Shown here piece after piece: positions 4,918 through 62,213 of a stretch of DNA of 64,000 nt. A program made the translations under genes and the position numbers. The DNA lies in the UHGV virus genome UHGV-2031204. One strand, written 5' to 3'. Numbering within the stretch: the stretch's first letter is position 1; the number at the start of each line of letters is the position of its first letter. The notes under the pieces were generated by a model. That model searched no databases, was not told where the DNA came from, and saw only the letters and a list, made by a program, of their open reading frames with translations. Source of the stretch: a virus.

Positions 4918-5532
4918 ATGTACAAAGTACGGGGTGATCATTTCATCCGTCCGAACTTAGGGTTACTGGAATACGCCACAGGTGGCGATTTCTATAAAGA
5001 TAAGTTAGTAAGAACCCTAATGCGCTTTCGCTGTATGCGAGTGTCTTTTCCTGCAACGATAGAGACGACGGATGAAGCAACGCGATATATCAATACCGCG
5101 ATTAGCGAGTTATCGAAAGCGTGTAACTTTCCTGGCAATAAAAGGGAACTGAAAGAGTTAGACAGTTACCTGAAACGGTTAAACGATGAATACCGGCAGT
5201 GGGAATTTAACTCAATGATGGAAACCAGTTATACGGAAGACATGATTGAGGATATGCGACCCCTCCTGGAAATCTATGAGTTATGTAAAATACAAGGCGG
5301 GTCTTCTTGGGATGTGTTGCGTGAACACGCGATAGAAATTCTTCGCGATAATATTCTCCAGATTTACGAGAATGATTGCGAACCCGTTATCCAGCTCTTT
5401 CGTACCGCACACAAATGTGGTATTGAGGGCCTGTGTTTAAACTTATCGTTACACGATGACTTAGGTACCGTTTCAGGTGTTTACGCTACGTTCCATCTGG
5501 ACATCACAATGTTGAGGAGTGATAATGTTTGA
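4918..5532 (+). CDS. hypothetical protein (204 aa)
   Basis: ATG immediately after the upstream TGA (4915..4917). Confidence 0.55.
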   Translation: MYKVRGDHFIRPNLGLLEYATGGDFYKDKLVRTLMRFRCMRVSFPATIETTDEATRYINTAISELSKACNFPGNKRELKELDSYLKRLNDEYRQWEFNSMMETSYTEDMIEDMRPLLEIYELCKIQGGSSWDVLREHAIEILRDNILQIYENDCEPVIQLFRTAHKCGIEGLCLNLSLHDDLGTVSGVYATFHLDITMLRSDNV

Positions 5533-5938
5533 TTTTAGTAACATTGAACCAGGGTCTATCGTAAATATTGTTTACGATACCCCGTTAAAAGGTAATGAAA
5601 CGCGAGTGCGTGTACTCGCGTCTAAAGTCGGCTATGAGTTTGCAAAAACCGCAGGCGAAGATCTGGCTGCTATCCAGAAGAACATTTATTCGTCGTTAGT
5701 AGCACAACCTTCAAATGACCTCACTGCGTATAACTATATGCTGTTCCGCGATTCTACAGGTAAAGTAGGCGTTGCGGCAGATGCATGGGTACGCGAAGTA
5801 AGGGTAATTACCAGTTTGACAGCACGTTTTGTTGTACAGCTCGATAACAAGCAGGAGAAAGAAGACCTGGAAGCTGCGTTGGCAGCACGTGGGTTTAATG
5901 ATGTGGAAATCGAGATCATTGAAAACGCGGCAGGTTAA
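5519..5938 (+). CDS. hypothetical protein (139 aa)
   Basis: GAGGAG upstream of the ATG; followed by the terminator at 5945..5986. Confidence 0.55.
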   Translation: MIMFDFSNIEPGSIVNIVYDTPLKGNETRVRVLASKVGYEFAKTAGEDLAAIQKNIYSSLVAQPSNDLTAYNYMLFRDSTGKVGVAADAWVREVRVITSLTARFVVQLDNKQEKEDLEAALAARGFNDVEIEIIENAAG

Positions 5939-35240: not shown

Positions 35241-35281
35241 TTACCCTACTCCCGAAGGAGTAGGGTAACGTTTATTTTTTT
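35241..35281. terminator. bidirectional terminator hairpin, near-identical to 40599..40642
   Basis: Stem TTACCCTACTCC / GGAGTAGGGTAA with loop cgaa, then a T-run; between convergent genes. Confidence 0.65.
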
Positions 35282-40598: not shown

Positions 40599-40642
40599 TT
40601 ACCCTACTCCCGGAGGAGTAGGGTAACTTTTATTATTTTTTC
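40599..40642. terminator. bidirectional terminator hairpin, near-identical to 35241..35281
   Basis: Stem TTACCCTACTCC / GGAGTAGGGTAA with loop cgga, then a T-run; between convergent genes. Confidence 0.65.
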
Positions 40643-50300: not shown

Positions 50301-50336
50301 AAATAATTTTCAGATATATATTACCTAGGTGAGATT
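50301..50336 (+). promoter_or_regulatory. conserved promoter-like motif, copy 6 (TTCAGATATATATTACCTAGGTGAGA)
   Basis: 26-nt stretch identical to the copy at 58563..58588; about 50 nt upstream of the ATG at 50385. Confidence 0.5.
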
Positions 50337-58834: not shown

Positions 58835-59650
58835 ATGATTACCATTAAAGATTATTTTCCGCGTGGACTGAGCAATGAAAACTTCGTTCCAACTGAAGAC
58901 ATTGCCATCGTAACAGAGTCTAGTGATAAGTCTTTTAAACTCTACTTGAGTACGGCAGCAGGAAAATCCACTCTTATCCTTCGCGAACCTGAAGTGATAA
59001 GCATCTGCTCGTTTGGGGGTGGTGTAGAAGGAACGATTAATTGGTTGAAATCCAGAATGCATCGTTTGCTTATCGTGAACACCGATCCTGTGATTCGTTT
59101 ACAGCAATTGAAATCGTTGAATGAAGTTATCGTCGGATTATTGGAACATGAAACGTTCGGTAATGCAGCGATTGCGGAAGAGATTAAATCTGTAGAACTA
59201 ATCGAGTGGAGTGATATCGAATACGAACGTGCTGCGTTATTCGCAATGTACGGTGACGATAATCCTGTTGTGTTTGCACAAACATTAGATAACGTTACAG
59301 TAACAGCGCGCGTATTGTTTGGCTTACAGCGTGTTGAGTTTGAACTGAAACACGTTTATGTAAGTAATACTCCAGAGATGGTGGAAACGTTGACTCGTGC
59401 GTTCGCTTACCCGTTAGACGGAGAATGGGAACAGCAGATTAATGAAGCGTTAGGCGCGATGCTGTTCTTAGCAGGCACACTAAGGAAAGAAGAGAAATTA
59501 GAAGGTCGTGTTTATCCAGAATACGATTTTGTTTGTGAAGAATGTGGAGCACAGTATCAAATACGTGTTCCTTTAACCGGCCTGACAATCCCGAAAGCCA
59601 ACGTGCAATGTAAGGAATGTGGCCATGTTCAATACGTAGCGACTAAATAA
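58835..59650 (+). CDS. hypothetical protein with C-terminal zinc-ribbon-like motif
   Basis: 271 aa; GGAG upstream; C-terminus CEECG...(21 aa)...CKECG. Confidence 0.55.
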   Translation: MITIKDYFPRGLSNENFVPTEDIAIVTESSDKSFKLYLSTAAGKSTLILREPEVISICSFGGGVEGTINWLKSRMHRLLIVNTDPVIRLQQLKSLNEVIVGLLEHETFGNAAIAEEIKSVELIEWSDIEYERAALFAMYGDDNPVVFAQTLDNVTVTARVLFGLQRVEFELKHVYVSNTPEMVETLTRAFAYPLDGEWEQQINEALGAMLFLAGTLRKEEKLEGRVYPEYDFVCEECGAQYQIRVPLTGLTIPKANVQCKECGHVQYVATK

Positions 59651-59656
59651 AAGCAA

Positions 59657-59700
59657 CCCCTAATCCCGAAAAGGATTAGGGGTACACTTTATTTATTTTC
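59657..59700 (+). terminator. rho-independent terminator
   Basis: Stem CCCCTAATCC / GGATTAGGGG with loop cgaaaa, then a T-rich run. Confidence 0.6.
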
Positions 59701-59707
59701 GCAAATT

Positions 59708-59791
59708 CAACAACTTGGATTAAATAAAAGGCTTAAAGCCACTAACAATCATCGAGTACAGATCTTCACCGAAAGGAGAAGTAACTACTAA
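59708..59791 (+). pseudogene. 5'-truncated remnant of the small-ORF family
   Basis: Reads in frame as QQLGLNKRLKATNNHRVQIFTERRSNY*, clearly related to the C-terminus of the 59948 ORF (SQLGMDKRLKPSTNRFTQIFTEKRSEHY*), but has no start codon and runs in frame straight from the upstream gene's stop. Confidence 0.35.
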
Positions 59792-59947
59792 ATAAAATAA
59801 AGGGGTGTGACAGCACCCCTTATCAAAGCTTTAACTTTTCGAAAAGAGAAGTTAAAGCAGGGTACGCTGTAGCACCAGCGTACCCTTTACAGCACCACCA
59901 CGTTTCCGTAGTGGATTTCTTTAATCACCCTACAAAGAGGGCTTACC

Positions 59948-60121
59948 ATGAACAATGGTTACTACTTTACTGACAAAATGCTTGCAGAACAGAGTGCAGC
60001 AAAGACCAATTTACAGCAACGTATCTACAAGTATAGTCAGCTCGGCATGGATAAACGGTTAAAACCGTCTACCAACCGTTTCACGCAGATATTCACCGAA
60101 AAGAGGAGTGAACACTACTAA
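59948..60121 (+). CDS. small hypothetical protein (57 aa), repeat-family member
   Basis: MNNGYYFTDKMLAEQSAAKTNLQQRIYKYSQLGMDKRLKPSTNRFTQIFTEKRSEHY; paralogous to the 60346 ORF and the remnant at 59708. Confidence 0.4.
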   Translation: MNNGYYFTDKMLAEQSAAKTNLQQRIYKYSQLGMDKRLKPSTNRFTQIFTEKRSEHY

Positions 60122-60345
60122 CAAATAAAGAGGAGGCGTGTCAGCGCCTCCCCTCCTCGTACAGTAACCTGCCGAGATGGTGGTCGTAGGTATAATAAAA
60201 AGGGGTGCACCACCACCCCTTTTCTTAGCTTTAACTTTTCCGAAGAGAAGTTAAAGCAGTAGAGACTGTTCCATCAGTCTCTACTGTACGGTGACAACGC
60301 ATAAAGTTGTTGACGTTTTTACAACATTACAAAAGGTAATGAAAA

Positions 60346-60507
60346 ATGAACGAATATCAAATACAGATGTTCAATACCGCGATGCGAAATCGTGAAAAAC
60401 AAATTCAGTTTAACCAACGCATGGACGAATATGTTCGTCTCGGCCTCGTTGCGGCACCGAAAACGGTTAACAATCACAATGTTCACCAACCACCTGTAAG
60501 GAGATAA
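60346..60507 (+). CDS. small hypothetical protein (53 aa), repeat-family member
   Basis: MNEYQIQMFNTAMRNREKQIQFNQRMDEYVRLGLVAAPKTVNNHNVHQPPVRR; the stop appears premature relative to the family 3' end (GATAAG versus GAAG). Confidence 0.4.
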   Translation: MNEYQIQMFNTAMRNREKQIQFNQRMDEYVRLGLVAAPKTVNNHNVHQPPVRR

Positions 60508-60650
60508 GTTACTAACTAATAAAGGGGGTGGCAGCAACACCCCCTACTTAGTTCAGTAGTTGTTTCCCGTTCATAATTAATAGCCTTCTGTTTTTTTTTG
60601 TTTTTCGAGACGCATAAGGGGTCATAAGGGGGAGCCGAAGCTCCCCAGAC

Positions 60651-62213
60651 TCAAAAGAGTTCGTCACCCATGCCGCCGGTAAATACGTTAATCGACGAGG
60701 CTGTTACAGTTTCTTCTTTATCACAATCCCATGGCAAAATGCCAACATCACGGAAAGGTATTACAGTATAATGATAAGCTTCTTTGGTATCAATAATGGT
60801 ACGGTGTTTACCGCGTTGTACTTCTAAATAGCTGTGTCCGCTGACGACACGTTTGTTAAAATACATCTCACCGTCAGCTTCGTTGTCTAAGCTAGAGCAG
60901 TTGTCGTAAAGACCACGACCAGGTAAGCTCTTACAGAAACTTGCTGGGTCGAGTGCTTTTAATTTTTTGCCTTCTGGTGAGATTTGGTGTGGTGCTAAGA
61001 GGAAACCACGATTACGTACCACTTGGATGTTTCGCGCGATACGATAAATTTCTTTAATGTCACTACCCGCAATACCGTTACCGTGCCCTGCTTTGCTGAT
61101 AGTACCGAAATAGTCTCCGCGTATTCCAGCTACATGATAACCTCGACGTTTTAGATCTAAAATCAAATCATTCAAATAGTGAATTTTAAAATCGGAGTTT
61201 GTGTGTTTTTGGAAAATATACTCCCAACCGTTTGCCCGCATTTTACTACAGAGGTAATCTGACATTTGTGCATTGTGTAGCGCTTTTTCTTCGTCAGTTG
61301 CCGTTTCAGGTGCAACCATTACCGGAGCTGTACCTTCAAAGTGTCCGTAAAGTGCTTGATACGCGTAAGCCAAGTTAACATCTAATTCGTTTTCTAAACT
61401 TAAATCCAGAATAACCGGTTGTAAGTCACCTTTAACATTTGCCATCACCTTTTCTGGGGTGTTGAATACAGGAATGCTAATAGAGAGCAATAAACTGAAT
61501 AATGACTTACAGTTAAAGGGTAGTGCGGGCATTAGCCAGAGTTCTTCGGTGATCCCTTTGTTACAGCCAAGCATTTGGTTAATTGCTTTCCACCCCGTAC
61601 GTAACCCATTACCTGCCGCTTTCTTACTGATAGAGTCGAATACATGTACGAAGGGTGCTTTATTGTCAGTAATCAATTCCCCTACCAGAGAAGGAATCTT
61701 ATTATGAGAGCGTTCACTGAACGTGGATAAGGTATCCTTAAGGTCGTTGAGCGCCGTTTGTAAATCAACACGCGTTTCAGTGCCGTTCAGTGCGCCTAAC
61801 GTACGACCCAATTTTTGTTTCAGTTGTACGCCTTGAATAGCTTGACGTAACTGAAAGTAGTATTGTGCTACTTGGCGATTAAGATGCTCGATGCGTGCTT
61901 CTGGTTCTTCTGGAATATCATCTTCCAGGAATTTGGTAATCGTATCGTATAGAGGACGTATTTGCGTAGTGGCCAGTTTCAAACGTTTCATGACGTTTGT
62001 GTGGTCGTAAGGCATACCGCCGTCTATGATGGATGTGATGATATCCTTGATTTCGACGAGGGCGGCACGTTCGTCACCTTCTTCTGCGTAATCAGGAAGC
62101 TTAGCCTCTAACAGCACTTTTCTTATGATGTCGTGGTCCTTTTCAGGATCGGTCAGAAGACTTTCAGCGTATAATGTGGCTAAGGCGGTTATCAACATCA
62201 TTTTGTTATTCAT
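60651..62213 (-). CDS. hypothetical protein (520 aa)
   Basis: Minus-strand ORF with AAGGA 6 nt upstream of its ATG; no motif recognised. Confidence 0.6.
   Translation of the reverse strand: MNNKMMLITALATLYAESLLTDPEKDHDIIRKVLLEAKLPDYAEEGDERAALVEIKDIITSIIDGGMPYDHTNVMKRLKLATTQIRPLYDTITKFLEDDIPEEPEARIEHLNRQVAQYYFQLRQAIQGVQLKQKLGRTLGALNGTETRVDLQTALNDLKDTLSTFSERSHNKIPSLVGELITDNKAPFVHVFDSISKKAAGNGLRTGWKAINQMLGCNKGITEELWLMPALPFNCKSLFSLLLSISIPVFNTPEKVMANVKGDLQPVILDLSLENELDVNLAYAYQALYGHFEGTAPVMVAPETATDEEKALHNAQMSDYLCSKMRANGWEYIFQKHTNSDFKIHYLNDLILDLKRRGYHVAGIRGDYFGTISKAGHGNGIAGSDIKEIYRIARNIQVVRNRGFLLAPHQISPEGKKLKALDPASFCKSLPGRGLYDNCSSLDNEADGEMYFNKRVVSGHSYLEVQRGKHRTIIDTKEAYHYTVIPFRDVGILPWDCDKEETVTASSINVFTGGMGDELF

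Follow-up and report, generated by a model that had tools for sequence, protein, structure and literature searches.

We describe a tandem array of small genes and hairpins at positions 59656–60646 of a 64,000-nucleotide stretch of the virus genome UHGV-2031204 (the whole stretch is referred to as the window), between a gene for a 271-aa zinc-ribbon protein and a convergent gene for a DnaB-like helicase. Comparison with about 40 related loci (among them those labelled L004–L029 and L038–L049) revealed that the locus is a hot-spot for the shuffling of accessory genes and not a new RNA machine. The related loci carry one to four small cassettes belonging to at least six paralog types (A to F) in varying order, and the interval separating the helicase gene from the upstream gene spans ~530–1345 bp in phages that elsewhere share ~99% identity. 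We consider it probable, if by no means certain, that these are autonomous micro-gene cassettes bounded by terminator-type hairpins, which also supply the homology for shuffling.

The array of repeats, open reading frames (ORFs) and hairpins is real and lies far above chance expectation. The original prediction, made from the sequence alone, had recognized three units, namely a truncated remnant, a 57-aa ORF and a 53-aa ORF, and all of them were recovered at the same positions by the repeat and hairpin analyses and by matches to a hidden Markov model (HMM) of the encoded protein family; in the six-frame translation of the window the model hit three places, the two ORFs and a start-less remnant (E = 5e-11). 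Two families of direct repeats, spaced by 400 and 399 nt, extend over 49 nt (82% identity) and 35 nt (77% identity). The pattern GGGGTG-N4-10-CACCCC of the first hairpin (H1) occurs three times in 64 kb, always at the locus, against 0.02 expected occurrences, and the arms of the second hairpin (H2), GCTTTAACTTTTC/GAGAAGTTAAAGC, are found in the window solely at 59828–59858 and 60228–60257. When compared with dinucleotide shuffles, the folding of the spacers gave z-scores of −8.7 and −8.8, with the minus strand folding nearly as strongly (z = −7.3), and a covariance model of the hairpin module detected exactly two copies in the window (100 and 99 bits). A search for the small proteins and the module elsewhere in the genome, proposed in the original prediction, yielded no copies outside the locus in pattern, covariance-model and HMM scans of the window, IMG/VR contigs and a complete 221,873-bp genome of the same clade. 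The module is present at one locus per 220–225-kb IMG/VR contig and gives one strong match in the complete genome, where the gene family is likewise confined to this locus. ARAGORN found no tRNA or tmRNA in the window, consistent with the earlier remark that no tRNA is evident, and nothing in Rfam came near its gathering score at a permissive threshold (the best match was McaS, with 24.2 bits against 42 and E = 0.27).

The array opens with T0 (59656–59683, plus strand), the terminator hairpin of the 271-aa gene, which reads ACCCCTAATCC cgaaaa GGATTAGGGGT followed by a T-rich tail and constitutes the left boundary. Next comes the start-less relic of a type-C cassette gene (59703–59791, plus strand; full-length form P0042), which ends in QQLGLNKRLKATNNHRVQIFTERRSNY and a stop codon. 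H1 copy 1 (59800–59821, strand-neutral) pairs GGGGTG with CACCCC, has an A-rich tract on its 5' side and TTATCA on its 3' side, and resembles a bidirectional terminator. It is followed by H2 copy 1 (59828–59858, plus strand), an AT-rich stem of 13 bp with an invariant U·G wobble and an A-rich loop, and by the directly abutting H3 copy 1 (59859–59886, strand-neutral), an 11-bp stem formed by AGGGTACGCTG/CAGCGTACCCT. H4 (59895–59914, plus strand), a leader hairpin specific to type A (CCACCACG tttc CGTAGTGG, with one C·A mismatch in the window), precedes the type-A cassette gene of 57 aa (59948–60121, plus strand). Right after the stop codon of this gene there is an extra GC-rich hairpin (60130–60154, strand-neutral; GAGGAGGCG..CGCCTCC), and then a 31-nt relic of the 3' end of a type-D cassette gene (60159–60189, plus strand; GTACAGTAACCTGCCGAGATGGTGGTCGTAG), which matches the aligned tails of type-D ORFs. 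The second set of hairpins comprises H1 copy 2 (60198–60223, strand-neutral), H2 copy 2 (60228–60257, plus strand) and H3 copy 2 (60258–60286, strand-neutral; AGTAGAGACTG/CAGTCTCTACT), the last differing from copy 1 at six stem positions, all of them compensated. A leader hairpin specific to type B (60292–60312, plus strand; TGACAAC gcataaa GTTGTTG) and the type-B cassette gene of 53 aa (60346–60507, plus strand) are followed by the terminal H1 copy 3 (60523–60545, strand-neutral), which lacks a subsequent H2 and H3 and is followed on the minus strand by TTTATTAG. The right boundary is the terminator hairpin of the convergent helicase gene (60629–60646, minus strand).

The cassette content varies widely among the relatives. 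The window and L020 share the order C relic, A, B, while F, C, D, A are found in L008, E, D, A in L004, E, A in L006, D, A in L014, E, B in L038 and B alone in L021; the commonest arrangement, represented by L039, is E', C, A. Related Seoulvirus phages carry one or two cassettes. Throughout, H1 stands after every ORF, the last one included, whereas H2–H3 are found solely before a following cassette or between T0 and the first one. The fourth, leader hairpin is specific to the type of the downstream gene, with A, B, C and D each possessing its own, and the type of H3 also follows the identity of the downstream cassette. Since H2–H3 occur only ahead of cassettes and the leader hairpin tracks the downstream type, the module is an inter-cassette linker plus leader and not a 3' appendage. 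The earlier picture of three-hairpin modules, each following an ORF, therefore requires revision: H1–H3 are indeed present, but a fourth hairpin precedes each ORF and only H1 belongs to the preceding gene. The statement that H1 begins within a few nucleotides of each ORF end does not hold for the 57-aa ORF, where H1 lies 81 nt downstream, behind the different hairpin and the type-D relic, and the stems of the third hairpin measure 11–12 bp and not 10 bp.

The cassette genes encode proteins of 48–61 aa which, in all types, share an N-terminal helix, the core motif F-x-x-R-hydrophobic-x-acidic and a basic tail. Besides types A–F, the related loci contain two SPN3US types belonging to phrog_18219 (gp194/gp195 in RefSeq numbering), which profile searches join with A–F and which occupy the same genomic slot. 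The window's own types gave no direct match to the phrog_18219 profile and types E and F matched it weakly (E = 0.09–0.11), while a joint profile retrieves both groups with E down to 1e-22 and 1e-9. The proposed paralogy of the two ORFs in the window is likewise upheld by profile searches, although pairwise BLASTP similarity is weak (E = 0.025). The family is confined to two clades: it forms 63 clusters among 5.8 billion proteins, and 14 representatives were retrieved when HMMs were searched exhaustively. Neither Pfam, PHROGs nor this HMM search provided a match suggestive of a function. For types A, E and D the ratio of nonsynonymous to synonymous polymorphism (pN/pS) amounts to 0.16, 0.17 and 0.39, respectively, whereas B, C and F have too few variable sites for a verdict. 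Because of these values of 0.16–0.39 in the better-sampled types, the cassette ORFs are considered genuine coding genes under purifying selection. One of the two interpretations offered in the original prediction, a duplicating small-gene cassette, is thus borne out by the existence of a single family under purifying selection, and homologous units, whose absence had been named as grounds for rejection, do exist in related genomes. At the same time, several alleles are truncated or frameshifted, suggesting that the cassette genes are dispensable.

AlphaFold models the protein as one helix (residues 3–35 in type A) followed by disorder, with a predicted local distance difference test (pLDDT) score of 70; the predicted protein is a single long amphipathic helix with a disordered basic tail. 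We infer that the cassettes probably encode dispensable host-interaction or accessory proteins. The conserved C-terminal peptide ..IFTERRSN, found at the ends of type C, E and A ORFs (59762–59785 and 60089–60112 in the window), is encoded by CTTCACC GAAA GGAGAAG, a hairpin-like sequence that resembles the top of H2 (CTTTTC GAAA GAGAAG; repeat family D3). Conservation of the peptide may thus be partly at the level of nucleic acid or a trace of past duplication.

Several observations locate the points at which cassettes are joined. L004 and L006 differ by an insertion/deletion whose junction lies where the ORF ends and H1 follows. Downstream of one and the same upstream gene type, A, B, C or D may be attached, and three variants of the H1–H2 linker re-assort with both neighbours. 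Hybrid H2 hairpins, with the 5' arm of one variant, the 3' arm of the other and an A/A mismatch, are present in L007 and L042–44. Crossovers also fall within the conserved ORF ends and have given rise to the chimeric proteins P0043 (C/A) and P0044 (E with a D tail), as well as to the single, chimeric ORF of SPFM4. A different route is represented by the type-C relic of the window, which, when aligned to L039, is seen to result from a ~330-bp deletion between two TTCAACA microhomologies. Given the chimeric genes and chimeric H2 hairpins, recombination joins cassettes inside H1–H2, and since this ~60-nt segment is near-identical between cassettes, it would also provide portable homology, allowing the recombination of the phage to insert, delete, reorder and fuse them.

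The same junctions bear on whether the palindromes could instead be DNA recombination sites, i.e. hairpins or cruciforms used by a phage enzyme that exchanges cassettes in an integron/attC-like or hairpin-nuclease-driven manner. The array resembles integrons in that small, largely promoter-less-looking tandem cassettes have boundaries of conserved structure and variable sequence and that their content differs between strains; crossovers inside H1–H2, even between the two arms of H2, would also fit such a site. The H2 arms GCTTTAAC/GTTAAAGC loosely resemble the RYYYAAC/GTTRRRY boxes of attC, with one extra base per arm. However, no integrase, recombinase or transposase is annotated among the 225 features of the complete 221,873-bp clade genome, and the neighbours of the locus are the helicase gene, the major capsid gene and genes of unknown function. 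Moreover, the stems are perfect palindromes or contain one wobble, and they lack the extrahelical bases by which attC is defined. Ordinary homologous recombination between the 60-nt repeats and between paralogous ORF ends accounts for all the junctions, and the relic in the window stems from a 7-bp microhomology deletion away from any hairpin. The absence of an annotated recombinase, the perfect palindromes and the homology-explained junctions make integron-like exchange at the locus unlikely, and we regard a dedicated DNA site of this kind as very improbable.

In order to assess the conservation of pairing, 27 distinct modules, comprising 31 base pairs, were aligned and compared with 500 shuffles and with slid alignments. 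Pairing is retained in 98.1% of the cells, and 13 of the 31 pairs have changed on both sides, which none of the 500 shuffles reached; in the slid controls pairing collapses to 42–57%. Compensated variation affects 8 of the 11 pairs of H3. H2 is the most sequence-conserved part, with 9 of its 13 pairs invariant and the U·G wobble present in all 27 modules. The loops behave differently from the stems: those of T0, H1, H3 and H4 have repeatedly been replaced by their exact reverse complements between near-identical phages. The T0 loop reads cgaaaa in 15 related loci and ttttcg in 9, the H4 loop is evenly split between gaaa and tttc (10 loci each), and the loop of H1 copy 1 changes from tgacag to ctgtca in L020. 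Further flipped pairs are caccaa/ttggtg, cctata/tatagg and cggtaa/ttaccg, as well as ctgtaa/ttacag in Seoulvirus. Such flips number 1–3 per pair of genomes differing by 40–60 single substitutions in 5.2 kb (~1%). H2 never flips: as read on the plus strand, its loops (gaaa, cgaa, caaa, gaaaa) are without exception rich in A. No flips were seen in two flanking non-array terminators, which make up the whole control. The possibility that the flips are assembly artefacts was considered and rejected, given that the hairpins (≤28 nt) are far below the length of k-mers and reads and that the flips occur in independent NCBI, ENA and Logan assemblies.

Minute inversions of loops are known from chloroplast spacers. 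In a single step, template switching can generate a perfect stem, a compensated change of several bases or an inverted loop (Monttinen & Loytynoja 2022, PMC8794818). As in those two settings, the loops of the array invert over intact, perfect stems with multi-base compensated changes; the difference lies in the high frequency here, 1–3 flips per 5 kb between phages ~1% apart. Palindrome-templated mutation thus contributes to the evolution of stems and loops at this locus. Since the flips are a signature of this process, which itself yields compensated stems, covariation alone is no proof of selection for RNA structure. The covariance check recommended in the original prediction accordingly gave a result that cuts both ways, with 98% of the positions paired and an alternative source for the compensated changes. 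Its suggestion that structure rather than sequence is under selection finds support in the maintenance of pairing through many double changes, and is at odds with the reverse-complementing of loops and the conserved sequence of H2.

Taken to its limit, the argument would render H2–H4 functionless: neutral by-products of template switching and duplication in a dispensable spacer, with the H1 terminator and the genes alone being of consequence. All three products of template switching are indeed seen, and in L014, in L027 and at 60130–60154 of the window an unrelated hairpin has taken the place of an entire one. On the other hand, the T0'–H2'–H3' layout persists before cassette 1 in Seoulvirus, whose core genes have only ~79% DNA identity to the window, and shows compensated changes in phage pEa_SNUABM_29; the 98% pairing in 27 modules leaves very few broken intermediates; and the sequence and wobble of H2 are invariant. 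We therefore find the neutral explanation improbable. Returning to the insulated, homology-flanked cassettes favoured above, complementarity of the stems would be kept both by selection for hairpin formation and by template switching, the same process flipping the loops. Flips being frequent in the array and T0 and absent from the flanking terminators might also be taken as footprints of the exchange enzyme discussed above, but that comparison has a control of only two non-array hairpins.

The constancy of H2 raises the question of whether H2–H3, with the leader hairpin, form a functional RNA element of the plus strand, such as a 5' untranslated region (UTR) attenuator, a processing or stability element or a small structured RNA, the shuffling being incidental. 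The invariant wobble, the A-rich loops and the lack of flips in H2 are all in line with this, as is the tracking of the downstream cassette by H3. phiKZ makes abundant short RNAs ended by 5'-UTR terminators (PMC10914365). In addition, the plus strand obtains ~100 bits with the covariance model and the minus strand 33–48 bits, although the model was built on the plus strand, so that the preference is partly circular. Uncompensated pairs of H2/H3 are mostly G·U on the plus strand (about 8, against 1–2 on the minus strand), an asymmetry that is suggestive at most (roughly p = 0.05–0.1). The free inversion of the H1, H3 and H4 loops means, however, that none of these is read in a sequence-specific manner; the minus strand folds almost as well as the plus strand, and Rfam contains no match. 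An RNA function as the main explanation is thus unlikely in our estimation. A bolder idea, which we rate as rather improbable, would see in the never-flipping H2–H3 a dedicated strand-specific element of nucleus-forming jumbo phages, either the recognition site of a phage-encoded cassette-exchange activity, a hairpin-based counterpart of integrons that needs no integrase, or an RNA signal for processing, stability or export that allows newly captured micro-genes to be expressed, with the flips as a by-product of hairpin extrusion.

How the hairpins might operate in the insulated cassettes is suggested by their resemblance to terminators. A scan for consensus terminators flagged H1 and H3 and returned 11 terminator-like sites in 3 kb, where 2.4 would be expected. 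H1 reads as a terminator on both strands and has an A-rich, stop-codon-rich tract on its 5' side. On the plus strand it is followed by TTATCA in copy 1 and TTTTCTTAG in copy 2, the terminal copy being without a tail; on the minus strand each of the three copies is followed by a TTTAT-type tail. H3 was flagged on the minus strand, where an arm of H2 provides the T-rich tail. The arrangement in Seoulvirus is similar: T0' is followed by TTTTATATTTATTTTCC on the plus strand and H3' by TTTTATTTTCTTTTCGG on the minus strand, both tails read TTTTAT directly after the stem, and the two pair with each other as H2'. The mapped terminators of phiKZ consist of a GC stem and a subsequent TTAT, and both bidirectional termination regions and terminators in 5' UTRs are common (Putzeys et al. 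2024, PMC10914365). The array resembles these sites in its GC stems right after stop codons, some of them with TTAT or T-rich tails, in the pairing of opposed putative sites in a convergent region and in their location within 5' UTRs; it differs in the weak plus-strand tails, the serial hairpins between co-directional genes and the sequence conservation of H2. The original prediction had regarded ordinary terminators of unrelated genes as a refuting outcome: H1 does resemble an ordinary jumbo-phage terminator, yet the genes are related to each other.

Each cassette would accordingly consist of a private leader with its own hairpin and Shine-Dalgarno sequence, a gene of 48–61 aa, a stop-codon-rich A tract and H1, which would act as an intrinsic terminator of the jumbo-phage type on both strands. 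H3 would be a second stem with its T-rich tail on the minus strand, and H2 would be formed between them by the mutually complementary T-rich and A-rich tails. H1–H2–H3 may thus represent face-to-face terminators that insulate each cassette from bidirectional read-through in the convergent zone; we infer this terminator and insulator activity from the composition of the hairpins and their tails.

A number of findings weigh against such a role. On the plus strand, the tails behind H1 contain far less T than the runs of 8–10 T of other terminators in the window, and behind the terminal H1 a T tract is almost lacking on this strand. Most other genes of the window manage with a single GC hairpin and a long T run. 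H2 is more conserved in sequence than mere U/A tails need to be, as judged from its invariant U·G wobble and lack of flips, which hints at a sequence-specific and strand-specific role. Promoters were not apparent in the spacers either: a scan for sigma-70-like promoters gave 5 sites against 6.0 expected, none of them in the conserved module, the consensus being one from which the promoters of these phages, transcribed by their own RNA polymerases, may differ. Neither of two candidate early motifs, AGATATTATC and CAGATATATATTACC, occurs in the spacers, nor does TATG, and an AGATAT-type early motif has no spacer copy and one partial match inside ORF A. A literature search on SPN3US transcription, these genes or intergenic hairpins returned nothing relevant.

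Other signals of possible regulatory nature were noted in the window. The heptamer TTTACAR is enriched in non-coding DNA (7 occurrences against 1.9 expected) and is present in type-A and type-B leaders, not in those of C or D; its sites at 59886, 60318, 14029, 17087 and 1817 (minus strand) usually lie 26–62 nt before a start codon, often right after a hairpin, and it could be either a promoter element or a terminator tail. The AT-rich motif CAGATATATATTACCTAGGTGAGA occurs at 50312 and 58568 on the plus strand, each time upstream of a small ORF, and AGATATTATC is found five times (1914, 9715, 9795, 19287 and 23075), mostly just upstream of genes; both are candidate early promoters of the virion RNA polymerase. 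Terminators elsewhere display recurrent sequences as well. The stem TTACCCTACTCC/GGAGTAGGGTAA is shared by two convergent junctions (35241–35268 and 40599–40626, with loops cgaa and cgga), and its core, CCCTACTCC/GGAGTAGGG, recurs with the loop flipped to ttcg at the end of the phiEaH2 homologue of the 271-aa gene (L001, ~5655–5680). Terminator hairpins thus seem to form reusable sequence families in these phages. At the helicase stop, a non-coding stretch containing a T-run, GACGCATAA and GGGGAGC-nnnn-GCTCCCC in this order is conserved in the window (60570–60646), Seoulvirus and Erskinevirus (L002, 5575–5660; L001, 5575–5640). On the minus strand it presents a stem followed by CTTATG...TTATGCGTC, which resembles the stem + TTAT terminator motif of phiKZ (PMC10914365).

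T4-like phages possess the closest analogues of the locus, the promoter-early stem-loops or PeSLs (Arbiol et al. 2010, PMC2839356; Comeau et al. 2014, PMC4122927). The two systems have in common a short, conserved module between genes of a hyperplastic region, in which an AT-rich tract with stop codons and a stem-loop of a G-run and a C-run are followed by a Shine-Dalgarno sequence and the start of a small gene, and in both cases recombination between copies explains insertions, deletions and replacements among close relatives. The layout here is TAAATAAAATAAA-GGGGTG..CACCCC, with a putative terminator role; in PeSLs the stem-loop, often polyG/polyC, serves as a terminator or attenuator. Excised mini-circles are a further trait of the PeSL system. 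PeSLs are, however, defined by a strong early sigma-70-like promoter, none of which was found in the array of these phages with RNA polymerases of their own. They contain one hairpin, and not three to four per module; they are dispersed in ~50 copies per genome, in contrast to a single locus per ~220-kb genome; and they accompany unrelated ORFans, whereas the cassettes described here are paralogs of one family. By analogy, the locus would work like a PeSL region without being a member of the PeSL family, since no sigma-70-type early promoter was found and the copies are not dispersed. Some resemblance to phage morons is also evident, both being small, dispensable and self-bounded genes inserted between core genes. 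Morons, however, are typically single, mutually unrelated and found mainly in temperate phages, unlike the tandem array of paralogs in a jumbo phage of lytic type.

The phage itself can be placed with the help of the genes that flank the array. The helicase ORF (520 aa; 60651–62213, minus strand) matches phrog_3213 with E = 9e-199, and the protein shares 85% identity with its counterpart in Erwinia phage phiEaH2 and 83% with the one in Salmonella phage SPN3US. Core genes have only ~79% DNA identity with those of these phages (Erskinevirus, Seoulvirus), and neighbouring genes match the PhiKZ-type major capsid protein and divDNAB families. A megablast search of the locus against isolated phages yielded no match, and the lineage is without an isolated representative in the phage collection. 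The lineage was also found as contigs of 215–228 kb in assemblies of clinical Escherichia coli/Shigella isolates and in metagenomes, and the 221,873-bp circular 'plasmid' of E. coli strain 98232 (NZ_CP173450.1) belongs to it, suggesting that a jumbo phage is carried in bacterial cultures. Taken together, the helicase identity, the core DNA identity, the lack of a megablast match among isolates and the occurrence in assemblies indicate an uncultured member of the phiKZ-related SPN3US/phiEaH2 group.

The surroundings of the array show further variation. The upstream 271-aa gene (58835–59650), whose product has a weak zinc-ribbon match (CxxC...CxxC) at its C-terminal end, is evolving very fast: 27% of its residues are identical in the counterpart from phiEaH2, compared with 85% for the helicase next to it. 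Downstream of the helicase, gene calls for the major capsid protein differ among the near-identical L004–L013 (~4960–5213), the predicted product being either 683 aa, with a start ~235 nt later, or 761–764 aa; the capsid gene may accordingly vary around its start or carry a small insertion at its 5' end. In L048, just outside the window, seven AT-rich palindromes are clustered at 2652–2987 (152,652–152,987 of NZ_CP173450.1) beside tRNA-Ile, in a ~2-kb stretch without annotated genes, and could represent a replication origin or another cis-acting site.

The array provides a clear natural case of compensated stems combined with frequent loop inversions and thereby warns against reading covariation in palindromes as evidence of selection on RNA. 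For the phages themselves, it would extend modular shuffling mediated by regulatory cassettes, so far described for T4-like phages, to the phiKZ-related jumbo phages with RNA polymerases of their own. Next to their helicase and capsid genes these phages possess a compact variable slot in which small genes are gained, lost and fused, and which could hold micro-proteins directed against the host or its defences and could serve as a site for engineering.

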